Assembly (NCBI GenBank): GCA_963844835.1
Contig: CAWJPT010000003.1
Span: forward strand, 17,543 to 81,542
Length of the DNA stretch: 64,000 nt
DNA from: an uncultured bacterium
GTDB lineage: Bacteria > Actinomycetota > Acidimicrobiia > Spongiisociales > UBA5794
Direction of reading: 5' to 3'
Within the stretch, counting starts at the first letter, position 1. Every line of letters begins with the position of its first letter. The notes under the pieces were generated by a model. The model saw nothing but the letters and a program-made list of their open reading frames with translations. It did no database searches and was not told the origin of the DNA. Below, one piece after another: positions 13,037-42,141 of the stretch. The position numbers and the translations under genes were made by a program.

Positions 13037-13528
13037 CTAGAGGTCGAGGACCATCACAGACGAATCGCCGTCGTCGCCGATCAGCACATAGCCAAGCGAT
13101 TCGTAGAGTCTCCTGGCAGGGTTCGGGTTGTTCACCGAGAGACTCAGCCGGGTGATTCCTTCTTGGCTAGCGACCGCGGCAAGCCCATCCATGAGCCTGC
13201 GGCCGATCCCCATCCCCCGGTACGCCGCCACGATCCCGATGCCGACTTCCGGTGTCTGGTCGTCCACGTAACCGTGGCCGTGGTTGTCTTCGGTGAACAG
13301 CCGGGCAAAGGCCGCCCCGATCAGTTGACCATCGAGGACCGCTCTGACCCCGATATCGCCCGGCCGACCCCAACCCTCGTAGTACGACCTCACCTCGAGG
13401 TTCGCCATGACGGTTGCCATGTCGGGGAAGCCGGGCGGGTCGTTCCACGACAGCGCCAGATAGAGCGCGAGCTGAACCGCATCGACATCGTCTGCTCCCA
13501 GCCGGGAGACGGATACCCGATCAGTCAC
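13037..13528 (-). CDS. GNAT family N-acetyltransferase
   Basis: 163-aa ORF with the acetyl-CoA motif YRGMGIGRRLM and a NPARRLYESLGY tail. Confidence 0.8.
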   Translation of the reverse strand: MTDRVSVSRLGADDVDAVQLALYLALSWNDPPGFPDMATVMANLEVRSYYEGWGRPGDIGVRAVLDGQLIGAAFARLFTEDNHGHGYVDDQTPEVGIGIVAAYRGMGIGRRLMDGLAAVASQEGITRLSLSVNNPNPARRLYESLGYVLIGDDGDSSVMVLDL

Positions 13529-15248
13529 GGTTCACTCCCACGATCGCGGGGGCCTCCCCGTTGCCCTCGGCCTCGGTCTCCCAGAGGTCACGGAACTCGG
13601 GACTGGTCTCTAGCAGGTCGGTTAGTTTGCCTGCCGCCACCACCCGGCCCTCGTCGAGGACGACGATCTGATCGGCTCGCTGCAGCGCGGGCCTGCGATG
13701 CGACACGACGAGCGCCGTCGACTCCGAGTGCTCGGCAAAGAGCCGCTCCCACAGCGTCTTCTCCGTGTCGACGTCGAGCGCGCTCGAGAGATCGTCGAAA
13801 ACCAACAGCTCCGGATTCCTGACGAACATCCGGGCGGCCGCAGTACGTTGTACTTGTCCTCCCGACAGCCTCATCCCGAGCGGACCGACCAGCGTGTCCA
13901 GCCCATGTGGCATCGAGCCAACGTCGCGATCGAGCGCCGCCGAGCGAATTGCCACATCCAGATCGACATCCTCGTCGTCTCTGCCCAGCAGCAGGTTCTC
14001 ACGCAGTGTCATCGAGAACAGCTTGGGAACCTGTGGCGTGTATGCCGAGCGCGGTGGCACGAAGAAGTTCGCCGGGTCATCAACGATCTCACCGTTCCAG
14101 CTGACGGTCCCACGGTCGACGGAGACGAGGCCGAGGATGGATCGCAGCAGCGTTGTCTTGCCGGAGCCGATCTTGCCGGTGAGCACGGTGAAGCTACCCC
14201 GCTCGAGGGTCAGGTCGACGTGCTCGATGCCGTTGCTCGTGCCGGGATACCGGAAGCTCATATCGGCTACCTCGAGGCGATCGAGGCGAGCGTCTGCAAC
14301 CGGTTCGTCGAACCTCGGCAAGTCACCGGTCAGATACAGGTCACGTCTCTGCACCAGGACGTCGGGATCGTCGGTCTGCAGCAGCGCATGCATCCTCTCA
14401 AAGGACACGCCCGCTTGTTTGAAGCGTGCGATGAAAGCGCCAATGAACCAACCCGCATCCGTGACGAAGCCGAGAAAGTAGACGAACAGGGCGAACTCGC
14501 CGATGGTGAGCCCGCCCGGCCTGCCGAAGTTGCCCGAGGCAACGATCAGGATCAACCCGGTGCCGATGCTGAGCGTGTTCCAGAAAACGGACTCGAGCGT
14601 TGCAGTGAGCACCTTGTCCCGCACCATCATCTTGCGGCGCTCCTTGTTGAGCCGCTTGAAGTGCTCGATCATCGGCGCCTCGACCCCGGCGACCTTGATC
14701 GACTGCACCGCGCCGAACATCTCACCGAGCGCCCCGGTGATTCTCTCCGTGGCCTCGCGTGCCGCGTTGCGGTAGCGGCGGATCCTGGTACCCGCCCGCT
14801 CTGCAATCACCACCATGAACAGAAGCGGGGCAAACACCAGCACGGTCATCCCGGCGTTGATCGATGTGAGAATCACCGCGGCGATGATGCCGAAGAGCGC
14901 GGTGCCGATCAGGTCGACGGTCATGCTCGTCGCCTCCTCGACATGCTCGACGTCCTCACGGAACCGGCTGATGATCTCCCCGGATGCTTCCTTGACCGAC
15001 TGTGCTCCCGGCAGCTCGAAGACACGCTCCAGCATGTTGCGCCTGAGCGTCGAGCTGACCCGGAACATGAAATGCACGTCGTTCCACATGGCGGTGAACA
15101 TCACCGCAAGCCGGGTCGCACCGTAGGCGAGCAGGAGCGCGATCAACGTGCCGGGGTTGAACCCGGCCGTGCCGAGACCGTCGAAGAAGCGTCTCGTGAT
15201 CAGCGCGGGGATGACCGGGAGGATCCAGATCGTCGCCCACAGGAACAC
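13521..15248 (-). CDS. ABC exporter, fused permease/ATPase half-transporter (MsbA/MdlB type), partner 2
   Basis: 575-aa ORF with six-TM region plus NBD (GKIGSGKTTL, LSGGQVQR, LLVFDDLSSALD). The in-frame N-terminal extension SHDAWHLVKAAPRRYAAN has no start codon. An ATG with an ATGA overlap to the upstream gene (15334) is in another frame, so a probable indel lies at 15250-15330. Confidence 0.8.
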   Translation of the reverse strand: MFLWATIWILPVIPALITRRFFDGLGTAGFNPGTLIALLLAYGATRLAVMFTAMWNDVHFMFRVSSTLRRNMLERVFELPGAQSVKEASGEIISRFREDVEHVEEATSMTVDLIGTALFGIIAAVILTSINAGMTVLVFAPLLFMVVIAERAGTRIRRYRNAAREATERITGALGEMFGAVQSIKVAGVEAPMIEHFKRLNKERRKMMVRDKVLTATLESVFWNTLSIGTGLILIVASGNFGRPGGLTIGEFALFVYFLGFVTDAGWFIGAFIARFKQAGVSFERMHALLQTDDPDVLVQRRDLYLTGDLPRFDEPVADARLDRLEVADMSFRYPGTSNGIEHVDLTLERGSFTVLTGKIGSGKTTLLRSILGLVSVDRGTVSWNGEIVDDPANFFVPPRSAYTPQVPKLFSMTLRENLLLGRDDEDVDLDVAIRSAALDRDVGSMPHGLDTLVGPLGMRLSGGQVQRTAAARMFVRNPELLVFDDLSSALDVDTEKTLWERLFAEHSESTALVVSHRRPALQRADQIVVLDEGRVVAAGKLTDLLETSPEFRDLWETEAEGNGEAPAIVGVNRD

Positions 15249-15330: not shown

Positions 15331-17070
15331 TCATGCGAGCACCTCTTCCATCCCGGTGATCAGCAGTTGTGACAGCCGGGAGTCGGGGTCTGCGGCGAGG
15401 CGGCGACGTTCGCCGTATTCAACGACCTCGCCGTCTTCGAGAATCAGGATGTCGTCGGCGCGGGTCACCGTTGCCAACCGGTGGGCGATGATGATCCCGG
15501 TCCGATCCTGAAGCAGCCGGTCGACGGCACGCTCGAGCAGCTTCTCGGTTGCTGGGTCGACACGGGACGATGCCTCGTCCAGGATCACGAGCCCGGGGTC
15601 TTCGAGGAAGATCCGGGTGAACGCCAGCAACTGGGCCTGACCCGCAGACAGGCCAGCCCCACCCGCTTCGAGCGTGGTGTCGAGCCCGTGTGGCATCGAG
15701 CCGAGCCACTCGTCGAGCCCGAGTTCCTGCAGCACCTCGTGGAGACGGGCGTCGGGAATGCTCTCATCGAAGAACGTCAGGTTGTCACGAATCGTGGCCC
15801 GGAACAGCTGCACGTCCTGGGTGACCATGCCAACGTGCCTGCGCAGGCTGTGCACGTCGGCGGTGCGGATGTCGACCCCACCGAGCAACACCCGCCCATG
15901 GAGCGGGTCGTAGAGACGGGTCAGCAGCCGGGCCATCGTCGTCTTCCCCGAGCCGGAGCGGCCGAGCACACCGAGGATGTGACCGGGCTCCAGGTCGAGC
16001 GACACCTCGTTGAGGACGACGTCGTCTTCGTAGCCGAAGACCACGTCTTCGATCTCCACCCTCAGCGCACCTTGCGGCACCGGTGTCGTGCCGCTCGTGT
16101 CGAGCACGGGGATGGTGTCGAACAAGCCCTGCACCCTGGCAATGCCGGCCGCGGCCTTCTGGAACTGCTCCATCTGCTCGCGGATCTGCTCCATCGGGCG
16201 CCTGGTGATCTCCGTGTACGAGAAGATCAAGTACACCGAGCCGAGGGTGAGTGTTCCGTTGCCGAAGAAGATCGAGCCGAGCCAGAAGACAACGCTGGTT
16301 CCGACCAGGTAGTTGGCGATGCTGGTGCCCCAGAGCGCGGCGAAGCCCATCCGGCCCATTACCTGGTCCGGGAGCCAGTCGCGCAGGATCTGGGTGAAGC
16401 GGCGCAGCATGTAGCCGACCCCACCGTTGCCACGGATGTCCTCGGTGCCACCCAGCTGCTCACCGACGAGACCCATCAACTCCGCCGACCGGCCCCGCAC
16501 CTTCTTCCACAGCGGCACGGCCCATGCCTGGATCTTGAGCATCATGCCCATCGACAGCAGGAAGAACACGGTGATCCCGAGCCCAACCCAGGCGTTCTCC
16601 AGCCAGAGCATCACCAGCACCCCGACCATCAGGATCGAGTTGCCGAGCACACGGATGGCGAAGGCGGAGAAGAAGTTCGCCTGGGCGGTGACGTCACCAT
16701 CGATACGCTCGATCATCTCGCCGGGCGTGTGCTGCTTGTGGAAGCCCATGTCGAGGTTGAGCACGTGGGCGGCCAGGTCGGCACGCATCTCGTTGGTAGC
16801 CGTCCAGCCGACCTGCTCGGCCAGGTAGGTAGCGGCAACGCTGAAGATCTGCTGCAGGACGGCAACCACCATGAACCAGACGGCGAGCGGGATGAGACGG
16901 CTCGACGTGGCACCTGCCGTGGCCCGGTCGAGGAAGATCCTCACCAGCTGCGGGCCGATCAGCGTCATGCCGATGAAGGTGAACATGGTGATGGTGAGCA
17001 GGGTCACCCGGAGCTTCTGACGGCTCAGGTAGTCCCGGAGAAGTCGGATGTAGGAGCGGACCGGAATCAT
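15331..17070 (-). CDS. ABC exporter, fused permease/ATPase half-transporter, partner 1
   Basis: 579-aa ORF. TM domain plus GRSGSGKTT, LSAGQAQLL, LVILDEASSRVD. Confidence 0.85.
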   Translation of the reverse strand: MIPVRSYIRLLRDYLSRQKLRVTLLTITMFTFIGMTLIGPQLVRIFLDRATAGATSSRLIPLAVWFMVVAVLQQIFSVAATYLAEQVGWTATNEMRADLAAHVLNLDMGFHKQHTPGEMIERIDGDVTAQANFFSAFAIRVLGNSILMVGVLVMLWLENAWVGLGITVFFLLSMGMMLKIQAWAVPLWKKVRGRSAELMGLVGEQLGGTEDIRGNGGVGYMLRRFTQILRDWLPDQVMGRMGFAALWGTSIANYLVGTSVVFWLGSIFFGNGTLTLGSVYLIFSYTEITRRPMEQIREQMEQFQKAAAGIARVQGLFDTIPVLDTSGTTPVPQGALRVEIEDVVFGYEDDVVLNEVSLDLEPGHILGVLGRSGSGKTTMARLLTRLYDPLHGRVLLGGVDIRTADVHSLRRHVGMVTQDVQLFRATIRDNLTFFDESIPDARLHEVLQELGLDEWLGSMPHGLDTTLEAGGAGLSAGQAQLLAFTRIFLEDPGLVILDEASSRVDPATEKLLERAVDRLLQDRTGIIIAHRLATVTRADDILILEDGEVVEYGERRRLAADPDSRLSQLLITGMEEVLA

Positions 17071-17551
17071 TGCGTGCCTTTGCGGTGGTGAAACCCCTCC
17101 GGGTCTCGTGCGTGCGTGTCGAGAGATGGCGTCGAGGCTCAGACGAGCCTGTCGCCCGGCGCTGGTTCAGCCGGGTCCGTTGCAGGACCCTATGGCGGAG
17201 ACCTCCTCCATGGAGGAGGCGATCTCCCCTAAGCCGCGGGGTGAACCATGCCCGCGGCGCTGATGGGCAGTAGCTGGTGAATCAGCATCTAGCGCTCACT
17301 TCTCTCGACCGGCGTCCGGTCGCACATACGAACGGCCGCAACACGCACTTCTCTTGCGTTCACGGCCGGAAAGAACTCTGGCAGACCACCCCGGAGGTGT
17401 CAAGGCACGGGTGGGATATAGGGGATTCCTGAACCGCCGGCTCGGCCCTGATAGGTTGGGGCGTGAGAATGCCGTGGAAGCGATGCCGCATACCAGCACA
17501 GCCGCTGGCGAACAGCGCCGACAGACTCACACAAGCGAGGGAGGGAGCACG

Positions 17552-40354: not shown

Positions 40355-40527
40355 GGCCCGAGACTACCCCTCCGCGATCCTCCGAAACGACCGCAGATCC
40401 GGCAATAGGCAGAGAAAGACCTTGACACCGCCATGCATCTATGCAAGATTATGGCCAGGCCGTGACACCCCTTCGGGGGAGTTGCGGCGTTTCAATTTCA
40501 GGCCTTCGAGGAGAAAGGAGACACGAG

Positions 40528-40656
40528 ATGATCACCATCACCTTCACTGCTGATTCCAGCTACCGGCTCGTGTCTCCGCGTCTGCGCGGCTGCGGCACGG
40601 TTGGTGCCGGGCTCACCAGCACTGCTCCTCGGAACACCGGGGCGACGACCATCTAG
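40528..40656 (+). CDS. SD-led 42-codon micro-ORF (candidate leader peptide)
   Basis: GAGGAGAAAGGAG lies 8 nt before the ATG. Peptide MITITFTADSSYRLVSPRLRGCGTVGAGLTSTAPRNTGATTI*. About 76 percent G/C at third positions. It is followed ~35 nt later by an intrinsic terminator. Confidence 0.35.
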   Translation: MITITFTADSSYRLVSPRLRGCGTVGAGLTSTAPRNTGATTI

Positions 40657-40689
40657 GGATCGTCAACCCGCACATATCGTTCACGAGGA

Positions 40690-40715
40690 GCCGCCCGGGG
40701 GGCGGCTTTCTTCTT
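40690..40715 (+). terminator. Rho-independent terminator
   Basis: GCCGCCC-GGG-GGGCGGC stem-loop, immediately followed by TTTCTTCTT. Confidence 0.55.
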
Positions 40716-40734
40716 GCCCGCCCCTCGACACACC

Positions 40735-40786
40735 GGGGCGGACTCCGATTGGGGGATCTTCGAGGGTTCGATTCCTTCCCGCTCCA
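40735..40786 (+). other. tRNA-like minihelix: 7-bp acceptor stem with G3:U70, canonical T-arm and discriminator A, but no anticodon or D arms
   Basis: GGGGCGG (40735-41) pairs with CCGCTCC (40779-85). T-arm GAGGG-TTCGATT-CCTTC (40762-78). A at 40786. CCA is not encoded. Total 52 nt. Confidence 0.35.
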
Positions 40787-41312
40787 CGGCAACCAAGGGC
40801 ATCGAGATGTTCGGGGTTTCCACGACGGCAAAGCCGCCGGGACCTGCGGTCCCTGCACACATACACGGCCCATCGCAGCCCGCAGCTCCCGGCAGCTTCC
40901 GTCACCAGTGCCCACCCCTGGCACAAGAAATGAGAAAGGAGGGGACGGTGAAAGCACCGATCGACACGCATCAGCAATGCGATCGTGCGCCACAGCGTCG
41001 ATCCCGGGCGCAAGCCGCGCTGGGTCGAAGACGCCAGCGCTCGCCAGATCGCACGGATGAACGAAGCTGTCGCCACGATCCGGGTGAGATGACCGGTAGC
41101 CGACAGCACGACACCCTCCTCACGGGGAGAGCGGGAAAGGAGACAGGAAGATGATGCATGCTCACGAGCGCAGGCCCGATTTGGAGATCGCAGTGACCGG
41201 CTCCTGGCCCTGAGCCAGATCGGTCGCCCGATCAGATCGCTACTACCCGGCCCGTGGGCCGCACCGACACGATGCCGTCGGCCGCGGCCCGCGGGCGTGT
41301 AGCCTCAGACTC

Positions 41313-42141
41313 ATGAGTGATCTACCGGCCCCGAATTGGTATCCCGACCCCTCCGGCAAGCATGAGAAGCGCTATTGGGACGGAACGAGATGGACCGCCC
41401 GGGTGATGAATGGCTCCGCCGAGACCGAAGACACCGGTGCCGGCACCGGCGCCGATGTCCCCGTCGGTCAGCAATCGTCCGCCACAGTGCAGCGCCAGGT
41501 GGAAGTGCAAGCCGGATTGCCCATCGCCCCATCGGGAGGTGGGACGATATTCACCGAGCCGATCCTGGTGGTGAATCAGCGTGCGAAGCTGATCGAGGTC
41601 AACAGCGAGTACGCCATCTACGACCAGCTCGGCAATCAGATCGGCGCGATCCGCGAGGTGGGGCAGAGTGGCTTCAAGAAGGCACTGCGCTTTGTCACTG
41701 ATGTCGACAAGTTCCTCACCCACAAGTTCCAGATCGTGGACATGAAGGGCATATGTGCATCTCGCCATCACTCGCCCGGCGAAGTTCGTCAAGTCGCGCC
41801 TCGACATCACAGACGGGGCAGGGAGACTGATCGGGTCAATCGTCCAGAAGAACGTGTTCGGCAAGATCAACTTCGGGCTCGAGGTGAACAAATCCGAGAT
41901 CGGCGAGATCAAGGCCGAGAACTGGCGTGCCTGGAACTTCAGCATCCAGGACAGTTCCGGTTCCGAAGTCGCCAGGATCACCAAGACATGGGAAGGCCTT
42001 GCCAAGACCATGTTCACCACCGCAGACAACTACGTGCTCCAGATCCACCGCACCCTCGATGAGCCGCTGCGCTCGATGGTCATCGCCTCGGCTCTATCAG
42101 TCGACACAGCTCTCAAGCAGGACAGCCGCGGTCTGAGCTGA
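41313..42141 (+). CDS. Scramblase/LURP-one-like family protein with N-terminal DUF2510 motif; frame broken near 41750
   Basis: APNWYPDPSGKHEKRYWDGTRWT (DUF2510) plus LVVNQRAKLIEVNSEYAIYDQLGNQIGAIRE are in ORF 41313... The C-terminal half, NWRAWNFSIQDSSGSEVARITKTWEG...YVLQI, is in ORF 41755..42141. Confidence 0.65.

Follow-up and report, generated by a model that had tools for sequence, protein, structure and literature searches.

The trpL, hisL, thrL and ilv leaders are leader-peptide transcription attenuators of amino-acid operons. Among structured RNAs, mascRNA is a processing signal that resembles a transfer RNA (tRNA), and for RNase P, RNase Z and the CCA-adding enzyme the stack of acceptor stem and T-arm suffices as a minimal substrate. 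How individual bacterial tRNA genes are regulated is largely unknown; the long tRNA array of Anabaena is silent and induced by translational stress, its control operates via direct repeats in the promoter, and no leader open reading frame (ORF) or terminator has been described for it (PMC8421152). Here we analyzed a window of 64 kilobases (kb; 63.5% G+C) from a metagenome-assembled genome of an uncultured member of the Acidimicrobiia (C3:17543-81542; genome 3.04 Mb, 68% complete). It contains a cassette of ~0.7 kb, in which the predicted order of elements is promoter, 5′ hairpin, 42-codon micro-ORF, terminator, tRNA-like RNA, hairpin with an invariant loop and a gene for a protein of 47 amino acids (aa) (Table 1). 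We infer from structure and comparative anatomy that the leader and terminator may act as a ribosome-dependent attenuator before the tRNA-like RNA, a plausible reading to which, given the folding models behind it, we attach roughly even credence.

The unit spanning 40410-41090 is present in 13 of the 14 genomes of the same genus, with 73-90% identity. An exact-pattern scan for the 5′ hairpin motif in one genome per prokaryotic species returned 26 loci, two of which are chance matches within a Rokubacteria coding gene. The other 24 are of three types, all of which have the promoter, the 5′ hairpin, a small ORF led by a Shine-Dalgarno (SD) sequence and the terminator in common, and in every one of these 24 Acidimicrobiia-type loci a tRNA-like element or a tRNA array lies within ~550 nucleotides (nt). 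Type 1 loci are those of the window's own genus. The five type 2 loci, from a sister genus, encode an unrelated peptide and have the same terminator, a tRNA-like element with an altered acceptor stem, a hairpin with a related loop and a homolog of the second small gene. In the seven type 3 loci, the leader is followed, ~200 nt past the terminator, by tRNA arrays of 7-24 genes, some of which are ended by contig ends. Covariance-model searches identified a fourth genus (G023) with the tRNA-like form and one further array-type locus in another family (G037). Related records carry the labels Acidimicrobiia or Acidimicrobiaceae. One type 1 cassette, nearly identical to that of the Acidimicrobiia genome L017, stands under the label 'uncultured Gemmatimonadales' (L042, CAXMRC010000059.1), which is likely an error of labeling or binning. 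The gene neighborhoods flanking the cassette are not the same between locus types, and the cassette can thus be regarded as a self-contained unit. Nothing similar to it was found in phage and plasmid collections, and a literature search found no description of a leader ORF plus terminator before tRNA arrays, nor of the tRNA-like element. The cassette is a so far undescribed one of uncultured Acidimicrobiia; since all of its carriers are uncultured, it has so far been invisible to experiment.

An earlier reading of the window, made from the sequence only, had placed an intrinsic terminator behind the micro-ORF, formed by the GC-rich segments A and B. This has held up as a conserved terminator-type hairpin with a 7-base-pair (bp) all-G/C stem, a 3-nt loop and, by eye, the U-rich tail TTTCTTCTT. 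In the alignment used for helix counts, which joins the 14 type 1 units with the five of type 2 (19 in all), the stem hardly varies and 97% of cells are paired. The simple consensus scan of the window calls neither this terminator nor the leader promoter; the homologous sites in relatives are called, including the hairpins of L030 and L033 as terminators. A helix that was absent from the list of the sequence-only reading, here named P4, is the better candidate for an antiterminator. P4 has 12 bp and one bulge, encloses the stop codon and occupies 2 nt at the start of the terminator stem, and 92.7% of its cells are paired. The duplex in the window has a predicted energy of -21.3 kcal/mol, compared with -10.0 kcal/mol when the 5′ strand is shuffled, and 0 of 200 shuffles reach the native value. 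P4 equivalents occur in all type 1, type 2 and G023 loci, at -19 to -25 kcal/mol versus -10 to -13 kcal/mol with a shuffled 5′ strand; relative to the stop codon they always lie at -32..-18, with starts 29-36 nt before it (26 nt in L016, whose ORF is shorter), and they always end 3 nt inside the terminator stem. In two array-type loci (L044 and L035), a helix of unrelated sequence occupies the P4 position, and in four others an ORF segment copies the 3′ arm of the terminator (GGCGGCC) and could, by eye, pair with the whole 5′ arm.

We modeled the ribosome as a footprint and let only the RNA beyond its leading edge, on the 3′ side, fold. In this model, the probability of the full terminator is 0.0-0.3 when the A site is at least 15 codons from the stop codon and rises to 0.8-0.97 in the last ~12 codons, a step that appears in 24 of 27 related loci and in all types. 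Shuffling of the upstream sequence gives a median terminator probability of 0.71-0.98, and the native sequences lie within the lowest 0-13% of shuffles in 15 of the 17 loci tested. In E. coli, masking of a terminator by a terminating ribosome ceases at roughly 30 bp (PMC4824070); the distance from the stop codon to the terminator stem, 26-35 nt in all loci, is at or just past that limit. A modeled ribosome at the stop codon would fall exactly into the gap between the P4 strands.

In the mechanism that we propose, P4 (40624-35 with 40679-91) would take the bottom 2-3 nt of the terminator stem and so disfavor the complete hairpin. A ribosome in the last ~12 codons or at the stop codon would preclude P4, the terminator would form and transcription would stop near 40707-15. 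If ribosomes lag, stall early or are not loaded, P4 would form and the polymerase would continue past the terminator, transcribing the tRNA-like element and the second gene. Helix P1 would sequester the SD once ~50 nt of the ORF have been made and, because it pairs the SD with codons 14-17, would limit loading to the first ribosome. The tRNA-like element would most likely be cut from the read-through transcript, by which the leader would be parted from the downstream mRNA and a small stable RNA released. Since the peptide has no run of a single residue and the leader differs between genera, the sensed signal is more likely to be general translation capacity than a single amino acid. The sequence-only reading had also suggested attenuation dependent on ribosome position; its general logic is plausible and its list of parts holds, but the route that it proposed, via a chain of GC 7-mers, does not.

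The tRNA arrays that follow homologous leaders bear on the same question. Array-type loci (L030, L033, L035, L044, L047, L050, L054 and L067) have up to 24 tRNA genes in 8 kb, most of them without an encoded CCA. The arrays always begin with tRNA-Arg(GCG), whose anticodon is unusual for bacteria, and a CGC-CGT arginine codon pair, which this tRNA would read, is found in five of the seven array leaders examined; apart from this recurrent pair, no codon matching to the array tRNAs was evident when the array leaders were viewed by eye. In L030 and L033, the sole promoter-like site lies 5′ of the leader and consists of TTGACA, a spacing of 17-18 nt and GATATT with a TG extension. CTTTGACAACTGCAGAG, located after the terminator in array-type loci, matches the boxA of the lineage's ribosomal RNA leaders (CTCCTTGACAACTAAACAG), and a similar box precedes the tRNA-like element in G023. 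A boxA located 3′ of the terminator implies that the polymerases reaching it started at the leader promoter and have to get past the terminator. The same leader precedes spare-tRNA arrays in related genera, so that it probably acts as a switch by which tRNA-type genes are controlled in response to translation. A wider proposal, which we make only tentatively and hold to be on the unlikely side, is that these leaders form a family of translation-capacity sensors, in which ribosome occupancy of the last dozen codons of the leader ORF would decide termination and so gate accessory tRNA arrays in several Acidimicrobiia genera or, in the window's genus, a minimal tRNA-like RNA and a 47-aa protein. 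With a leader ORF and terminator placed before accessory tRNA arrays, ribosome-mediated attenuation would come to include genes for the translation machinery itself.

The sequence-only reading gave correct coordinates throughout (ATG at 40528, TAG at 40654-56, and segments A to E), and the SD-led micro-ORF to which it drew attention is a conserved frame, open in 14 of the 14 genomes of the genus. In these genomes the micro-ORF has 36-43 codons, a stop codon at the homologous place and an invariant SD and ATG, and it retains the blocks M(I/N)T.TFTA, SPRLRG and APRNTGATT. In the three other locus types, ORFs of 42-52 codons with unrelated peptide sequences are found at the same place. Judged from the sequences, this is a leader-peptide-like pattern, in which frame, length and geometry are kept while the sequence is free. 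Among single-nucleotide codon differences, 48% are synonymous. Neither the micro-ORF peptide nor the second small protein matched a Pfam or NCBIfam family, and a large protein search with both products returned close hypothetical homologs only. The peptide has no run of one residue, as had been noted, and regulatory codons like those of leader-peptide attenuators were not found in it. Its Thr/Ile-rich N-terminus is present in the window but is not kept in other locus types, which makes an amino-acid-specific sensor unlikely. Helix P1 is a perfect 11-nt inverted repeat that covaries within the genus, alternating between ACACG/CGTGT and ACGCA/TGCGT. Compensatory changes in the hairpins within the ORF indicate that coding and RNA structure act on the same letters. 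In the terminator, the pyrimidine tail CTTTCTTCTT (40706-15) is complementary to the purine tract GAGGAGAAAG before the SD (40508-17), by which the terminated transcript is predicted to self-close with the SD buried; the pair counts for this closure between the pre-SD purines and the U tract are not above shuffles.

The tRNA-like structure that had been suspected behind the terminator is borne out by comparison. The element has a 7-bp acceptor stem and the T-arm GAGGG TTCGATT CCTTC, lacks an anticodon arm and an encoded CCA, and has only ~6 nt between the D-like hairpin and the T-arm. Members of the family share a hairpin of 3-4 bp with a variable loop, a linker of ~6 nt, the T-loop TTCGAnn and a discriminator A or G. 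The fold has 95.9% of cells paired and covariation above 500 of 500 shuffles, and compensatory changes keep its three helices in four genera; the element was also found in genera G129 and G023. The acceptor stem, D:E, has 98.4% of cells paired, and its pair 4:69 is G-C, G.U or A-U. In the genome the element is single-copy, since its own covariance model scores it at 61.7 bits versus 23 bits for the next match. ARAGORN detected no tRNA in the window, and no Rfam family reached its cut-off there; the element lacks the cloverleaf with an anticodon arm that marks a tRNA gene. We also considered transfer-messenger RNA (tmRNA, RF00023). Only the ends of that model match, at 27.9 bits versus a cut-off of 47, and the true ssrA lies on another contig and differs at both stem strands; real tRNA-Ala genes outscore the element with the tmRNA model, so the resemblance is generic. 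The 3:70 pair of 18 distinct sequences is G.U in eight, A-U in five and G-C in five. The window has G.U, and G3:U70 is found in 8 of the 14 genus genomes and in none of the sister genus. The alanine minihelix signature (G3:U70 with A73) is thus not conserved, and alanine charging is not a common function of the family. We infer that the element is a processing signal or a released small RNA; supported by covariation and belonging to no Rfam family, this anticodon-less RNA may represent a new small RNA, or else a bacterial processing signal of tRNA type.

The sequence-only reading explained the same region by a relay, in which five mutually exclusive GC 7-mers would pass the position of the ribosome to the terminator. 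It is true that every 7-mer is present and able to pair in the window sequence, and that thermodynamic folding of the single sequence favors C:D over the tRNA-like fold. The repeated 11-mer that had been reported, ACACCGGGGCG, is also real (40634-44 and 40730-40); it forms the center of an imperfect direct repeat of 21 nt, and its two copies in the 64-kb window compare with 0.13 expected, at least two being found in 3 of 100 shuffles. The chain region (68.5% G+C) has five distinct helices of at least 7 bp versus 2.0 ± 1.5 in dinucleotide shuffles, 6% of which reach five. By itself the chain is marginally beyond chance, so the case has to rest on conservation and not on the counting of 7-mers. 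The proposed helices B:C (86% of cells paired), C:D (84%) and ORF tail:A (72%), and likewise ORF tail:E (81%), are not above column shuffles, and all four are lost in type 2 of the sister genus, where D changed and C did not. Segments C, D and E are transcribed after the U-tract and therefore cannot take part in the termination decision. The spacer between C and D varies in length and accepts hairpin insertions of up to ~50 nt in some genomes, and D:E, which had been taken for a switch arm, covaries as the acceptor stem of the tRNA-like RNA. We consider the relay very improbable. No more credible is the idea that the tRNA-like element is a dead remnant, either a decayed tRNA or tmRNA gene or the scar of an attachment site. 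Integrative elements do duplicate the 3′ ends of tRNA and tmRNA genes, the element does match the ends of the tmRNA model, and the tRNA arrays of related loci are a possible source; yet its two stem strands pair with each other while both differ from the genome's ssrA, the compensatory changes preserve three helices across four genera, the genome holds no second copy, and no integrase or phage gene lies nearby.

Several points weigh against the attenuator itself. The switch depends wholly on equilibrium folding and a crude footprint model, and an earlier model, with a 30-nt unpaired ribosome mask across which pairing was allowed, was inconsistent. Three of the 27 loci depart from the pattern, with no step in L021 and L054 and a weak one in L035, and 12% of window shuffles give an equally low terminator probability. 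The overlap between P4 and the terminator is only 2-4 nt and could easily be resolved by branch migration, and the core of P4, being unchanged throughout types 1, 2 and G023, offers no covariation. Transcription and translation may be coupled to a greater or lesser degree in Acidimicrobiia, and a non-consensus promoter may lie 3′ of the terminator. In the micro-ORF, extra states number 38, 52 and 55 at codon positions 1, 2 and 3, and the absence of a third-position excess indicates that RNA structure constrains the frame as much as coding does. The uncovarying P4 core and the crudeness of the folding models would suit an ordinary small-protein gene with its own efficient terminator, behind which a small tRNA-like RNA gene is transcribed independently and a second small gene follows, read-through is unregulated and the helices of the ORF merely stabilize the mRNA or limit translation; so would the strong and nearly invariant terminator, which in G023 carries a U7 tract, and a terminated transcript that folds compactly with the SD buried. 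However, the U-tract is 28 nt from the 5′ end of the tRNA-like element, with no promoter-like site seen there by the consensus scan, and no second promoter was found in the array-type homologs, where boxA follows the terminator. Moreover, P4 retains its geometry with respect to stop codon and terminator even where its sequence differs, and the module is always located 5′ of tRNA-type genes. We judge such an ordinary gene, the main rival of the attenuator, unlikely, though by no means negligible. The whole 330-nt unit could instead be a structured non-coding RNA with an incidental open frame, since several conserved hairpins lie inside the ORF, GCTCCTCGGAACACCGG shows nucleotide conservation without wobble variation, no third-position excess is seen, and by our estimate from composition a 42-codon open frame has a ~30% chance in DNA of 63% GC. 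This appears quite improbable to us, because the frame is open in all 14 diverged genomes, a counterpart is open at the matching position of three further locus types, neither the SD nor the ATG varies, and changes in length keep the stop codon 26-35 nt before the terminator.

The TTGACA of the promoter is invariant across 21 aligned loci of four locus types, and the aligned site in relatives scores 10/12, has a TG extension and is the sole promoter-like site in those leaders. In the 5′ terminal hairpin, 99.2% of cells are paired over 21 loci, which 1 of 500 shuffles equals; two pairs are altered on both sides in G023, and a G.U pair becomes A-U in array-type loci. On the 3′ side of this hairpin lies region 1′, whose pairing with 40625-33 comprises 81.9% of cells and is matched by 0 of 500 shuffles. 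The only variation in the 5′ strand of P4 (C to T, in three genomes) is mirrored by G to A in region 1′, a double change from G-C to A-U. The copy and the matched change hint at the classical 1:2 / 2:3 / 3:4 layout, and we regard the pairing of region 1′ with the P4 5′ strand as suggestive only. A second signature of promoter plus 5′ hairpin is found in the window at 17229-17411 on the minus strand (39 bits, model R2); it retains GGCCGTGA..TGTTGCGGCC as its lower stem and has ACGCA/TGCGT in place of the upper one. It heads a strongly structured leader of 300 nt (z = -4.0) with a possible 19-codon ORF, and 3′ of that leader lies an ABC exporter pair (ABC_membrane plus ABC_tran; 15331-17070 and 13521-15248, both on the minus strand). 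The two leaders may share regulatory input, and there are hints of a small regulon for translation stress, whose transcripts would be recognizable by a hairpin at their 5′ ends.

Downstream of the tRNA-like element follows the long hairpin; its loop, CACATACACGGCCC, does not vary within the genus. Related loops (CACATAGTTACGGCC, ACATACATACGGCC and GTCACGGCCTGA) occur in type 2, G023 and array-type loci, and in the arrays they are located just 5′ of the first tRNA. Of the 14 genomes, 12 have an intact second small gene of 47 aa; L012 has another frameshift, and that in the window is due either to assembly error or to decay. Homologs of this gene are found in type 2 loci and in G023, several assemblies annotate a hypothetical protein, and tblastn gave no significant match to its product in the tRNA-array loci. 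The region from the micro-ORF to the tRNA-like element sits in a gap of ~960 nt (40355-41312), between a mycothiol-type DinB/MDMPI gene on the minus strand and a DUF2510/scramblase-like gene on the plus strand. At 41134-41214, before the latter gene, a third SD (GAAAGGAGACAGGA), nearly identical to that of the micro-ORF, leads a 20-codon ORF. The DUF2510/scramblase-like gene (41313-42141) appears in the window as two overlapping frames, 41313-42062 and 41755-42141, and in relatives as one ORF of 285-315 aa; in the window it is likely frameshifted.

Table 1. Features of the cassette in window coordinates, in 5′ to 3′ order.
Feature	Coordinates	Strand	Details
Promoter (predicted)	40422..40451	+	-35 TTGACA (40422-27); weak extended -10 TGC AAGATT (~40442-50)
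5′ terminal hairpin	40459..40501	+	8 bp, 1x1 internal loop, 4 bp; then U-rich tract
Region 1′	40505..40513	+	TTCGAGGAG; copy of 3′ strand of candidate antiterminator; can pair with 40625-33
Shine-Dalgarno	40510..40520	+	GGAGAAAGGAG; 8 nt 5′ of ATG; core columns invariant in 19 loci
Helix P1	40517..40577	+	SD/start region 40517-27 with codons 14-17 (40567-77)
Leader micro-ORF	40528..40656	+	42 codons (MITITFTA..SPRLRG..APRNTGATTI)
Hairpin P3 in ORF	40594..40608	+	3 of 5 pairs with changes on both sides
Helix P4, candidate antiterminator	40624..40691	+	codons 33-36 (40624-35) with 40679-91
Small hairpin, TAG stop in loop	40644..40664	+	73% of cells paired; some compensatory changes; weak
Intrinsic terminator (A:B, predicted)	40690..40715	+	GCCGCCC / GGG / GGGCGGC plus TTTCTTCTT
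Segment A	40690-96	+	GCCGCCC
Segment B	40699-706	+	GGGGCGGC
Spacer	40716..40734	+	holds C and second copy of 21-nt repeat
Segment C	40718-24	+	CCGCCCC
Mini tRNA-like element	40735..40788	+	52 nt; acceptor stem D:E (40735-41 with 40779-85), D-like hairpin, T-arm, discriminator A40786
Segment D	40735-41	+	GGGGCGG
Segment E	40779-85	+	CCGCTCC
Long hairpin	40831..40898	+	loop CACATACACGGCCC (40858-71); arms 19 nt, 89% complementary
Second small gene	40948..41092	+	47 aa in relatives; +1 frameshift near 40963 in window

Like the trpL, hisL, thrL and ilv leaders, the cassette combines a short SD-led ORF with a predicted terminator before the downstream genes, and a segment within the ORF is able to base-pair with the terminator's 5′ side; region 1′ as a possible upstream partner of that segment and the predicted sequestration of the SD after the first round of translation are further likenesses. 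Unlike those leaders, it has no regulatory codon run, its peptides differ between genera, and the overlap between antiterminator and terminator is small (2-4 nt in the window's locus type). Its output is a tRNA-like RNA or a tRNA array instead of biosynthetic enzymes, and its predicted default in the absence of translation is read-through and not super-attenuation. With mef(E)/mel, which is reported to answer translation inhibitors by ribosome-mediated attenuation (PMC4335068), it would share the opening of a terminator by a general slowing of the ribosome that translates the leader and not by shortage of one amino acid; it differs in that no resistance genes lie downstream and no arrest-peptide motif was identified in it. 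As for the Anabaena trn operon (PMC8421152), the homologous leaders of other Acidimicrobiia precede long tRNA arrays of 11-24 genes, whereas the window has a single anticodon-less tRNA-like element and no array. That element resembles the tRNA-like domain of tmRNA (RF00023) in having an acceptor stem and a T-arm with a canonical T-loop, no anticodon arm and a position within a longer transcript, and it is predicted to be a likely substrate of RNase P; it differs from tmRNA in having neither a tag ORF nor pseudoknots. It is also like mascRNA in being a tRNA-like part embedded in a longer transcript.

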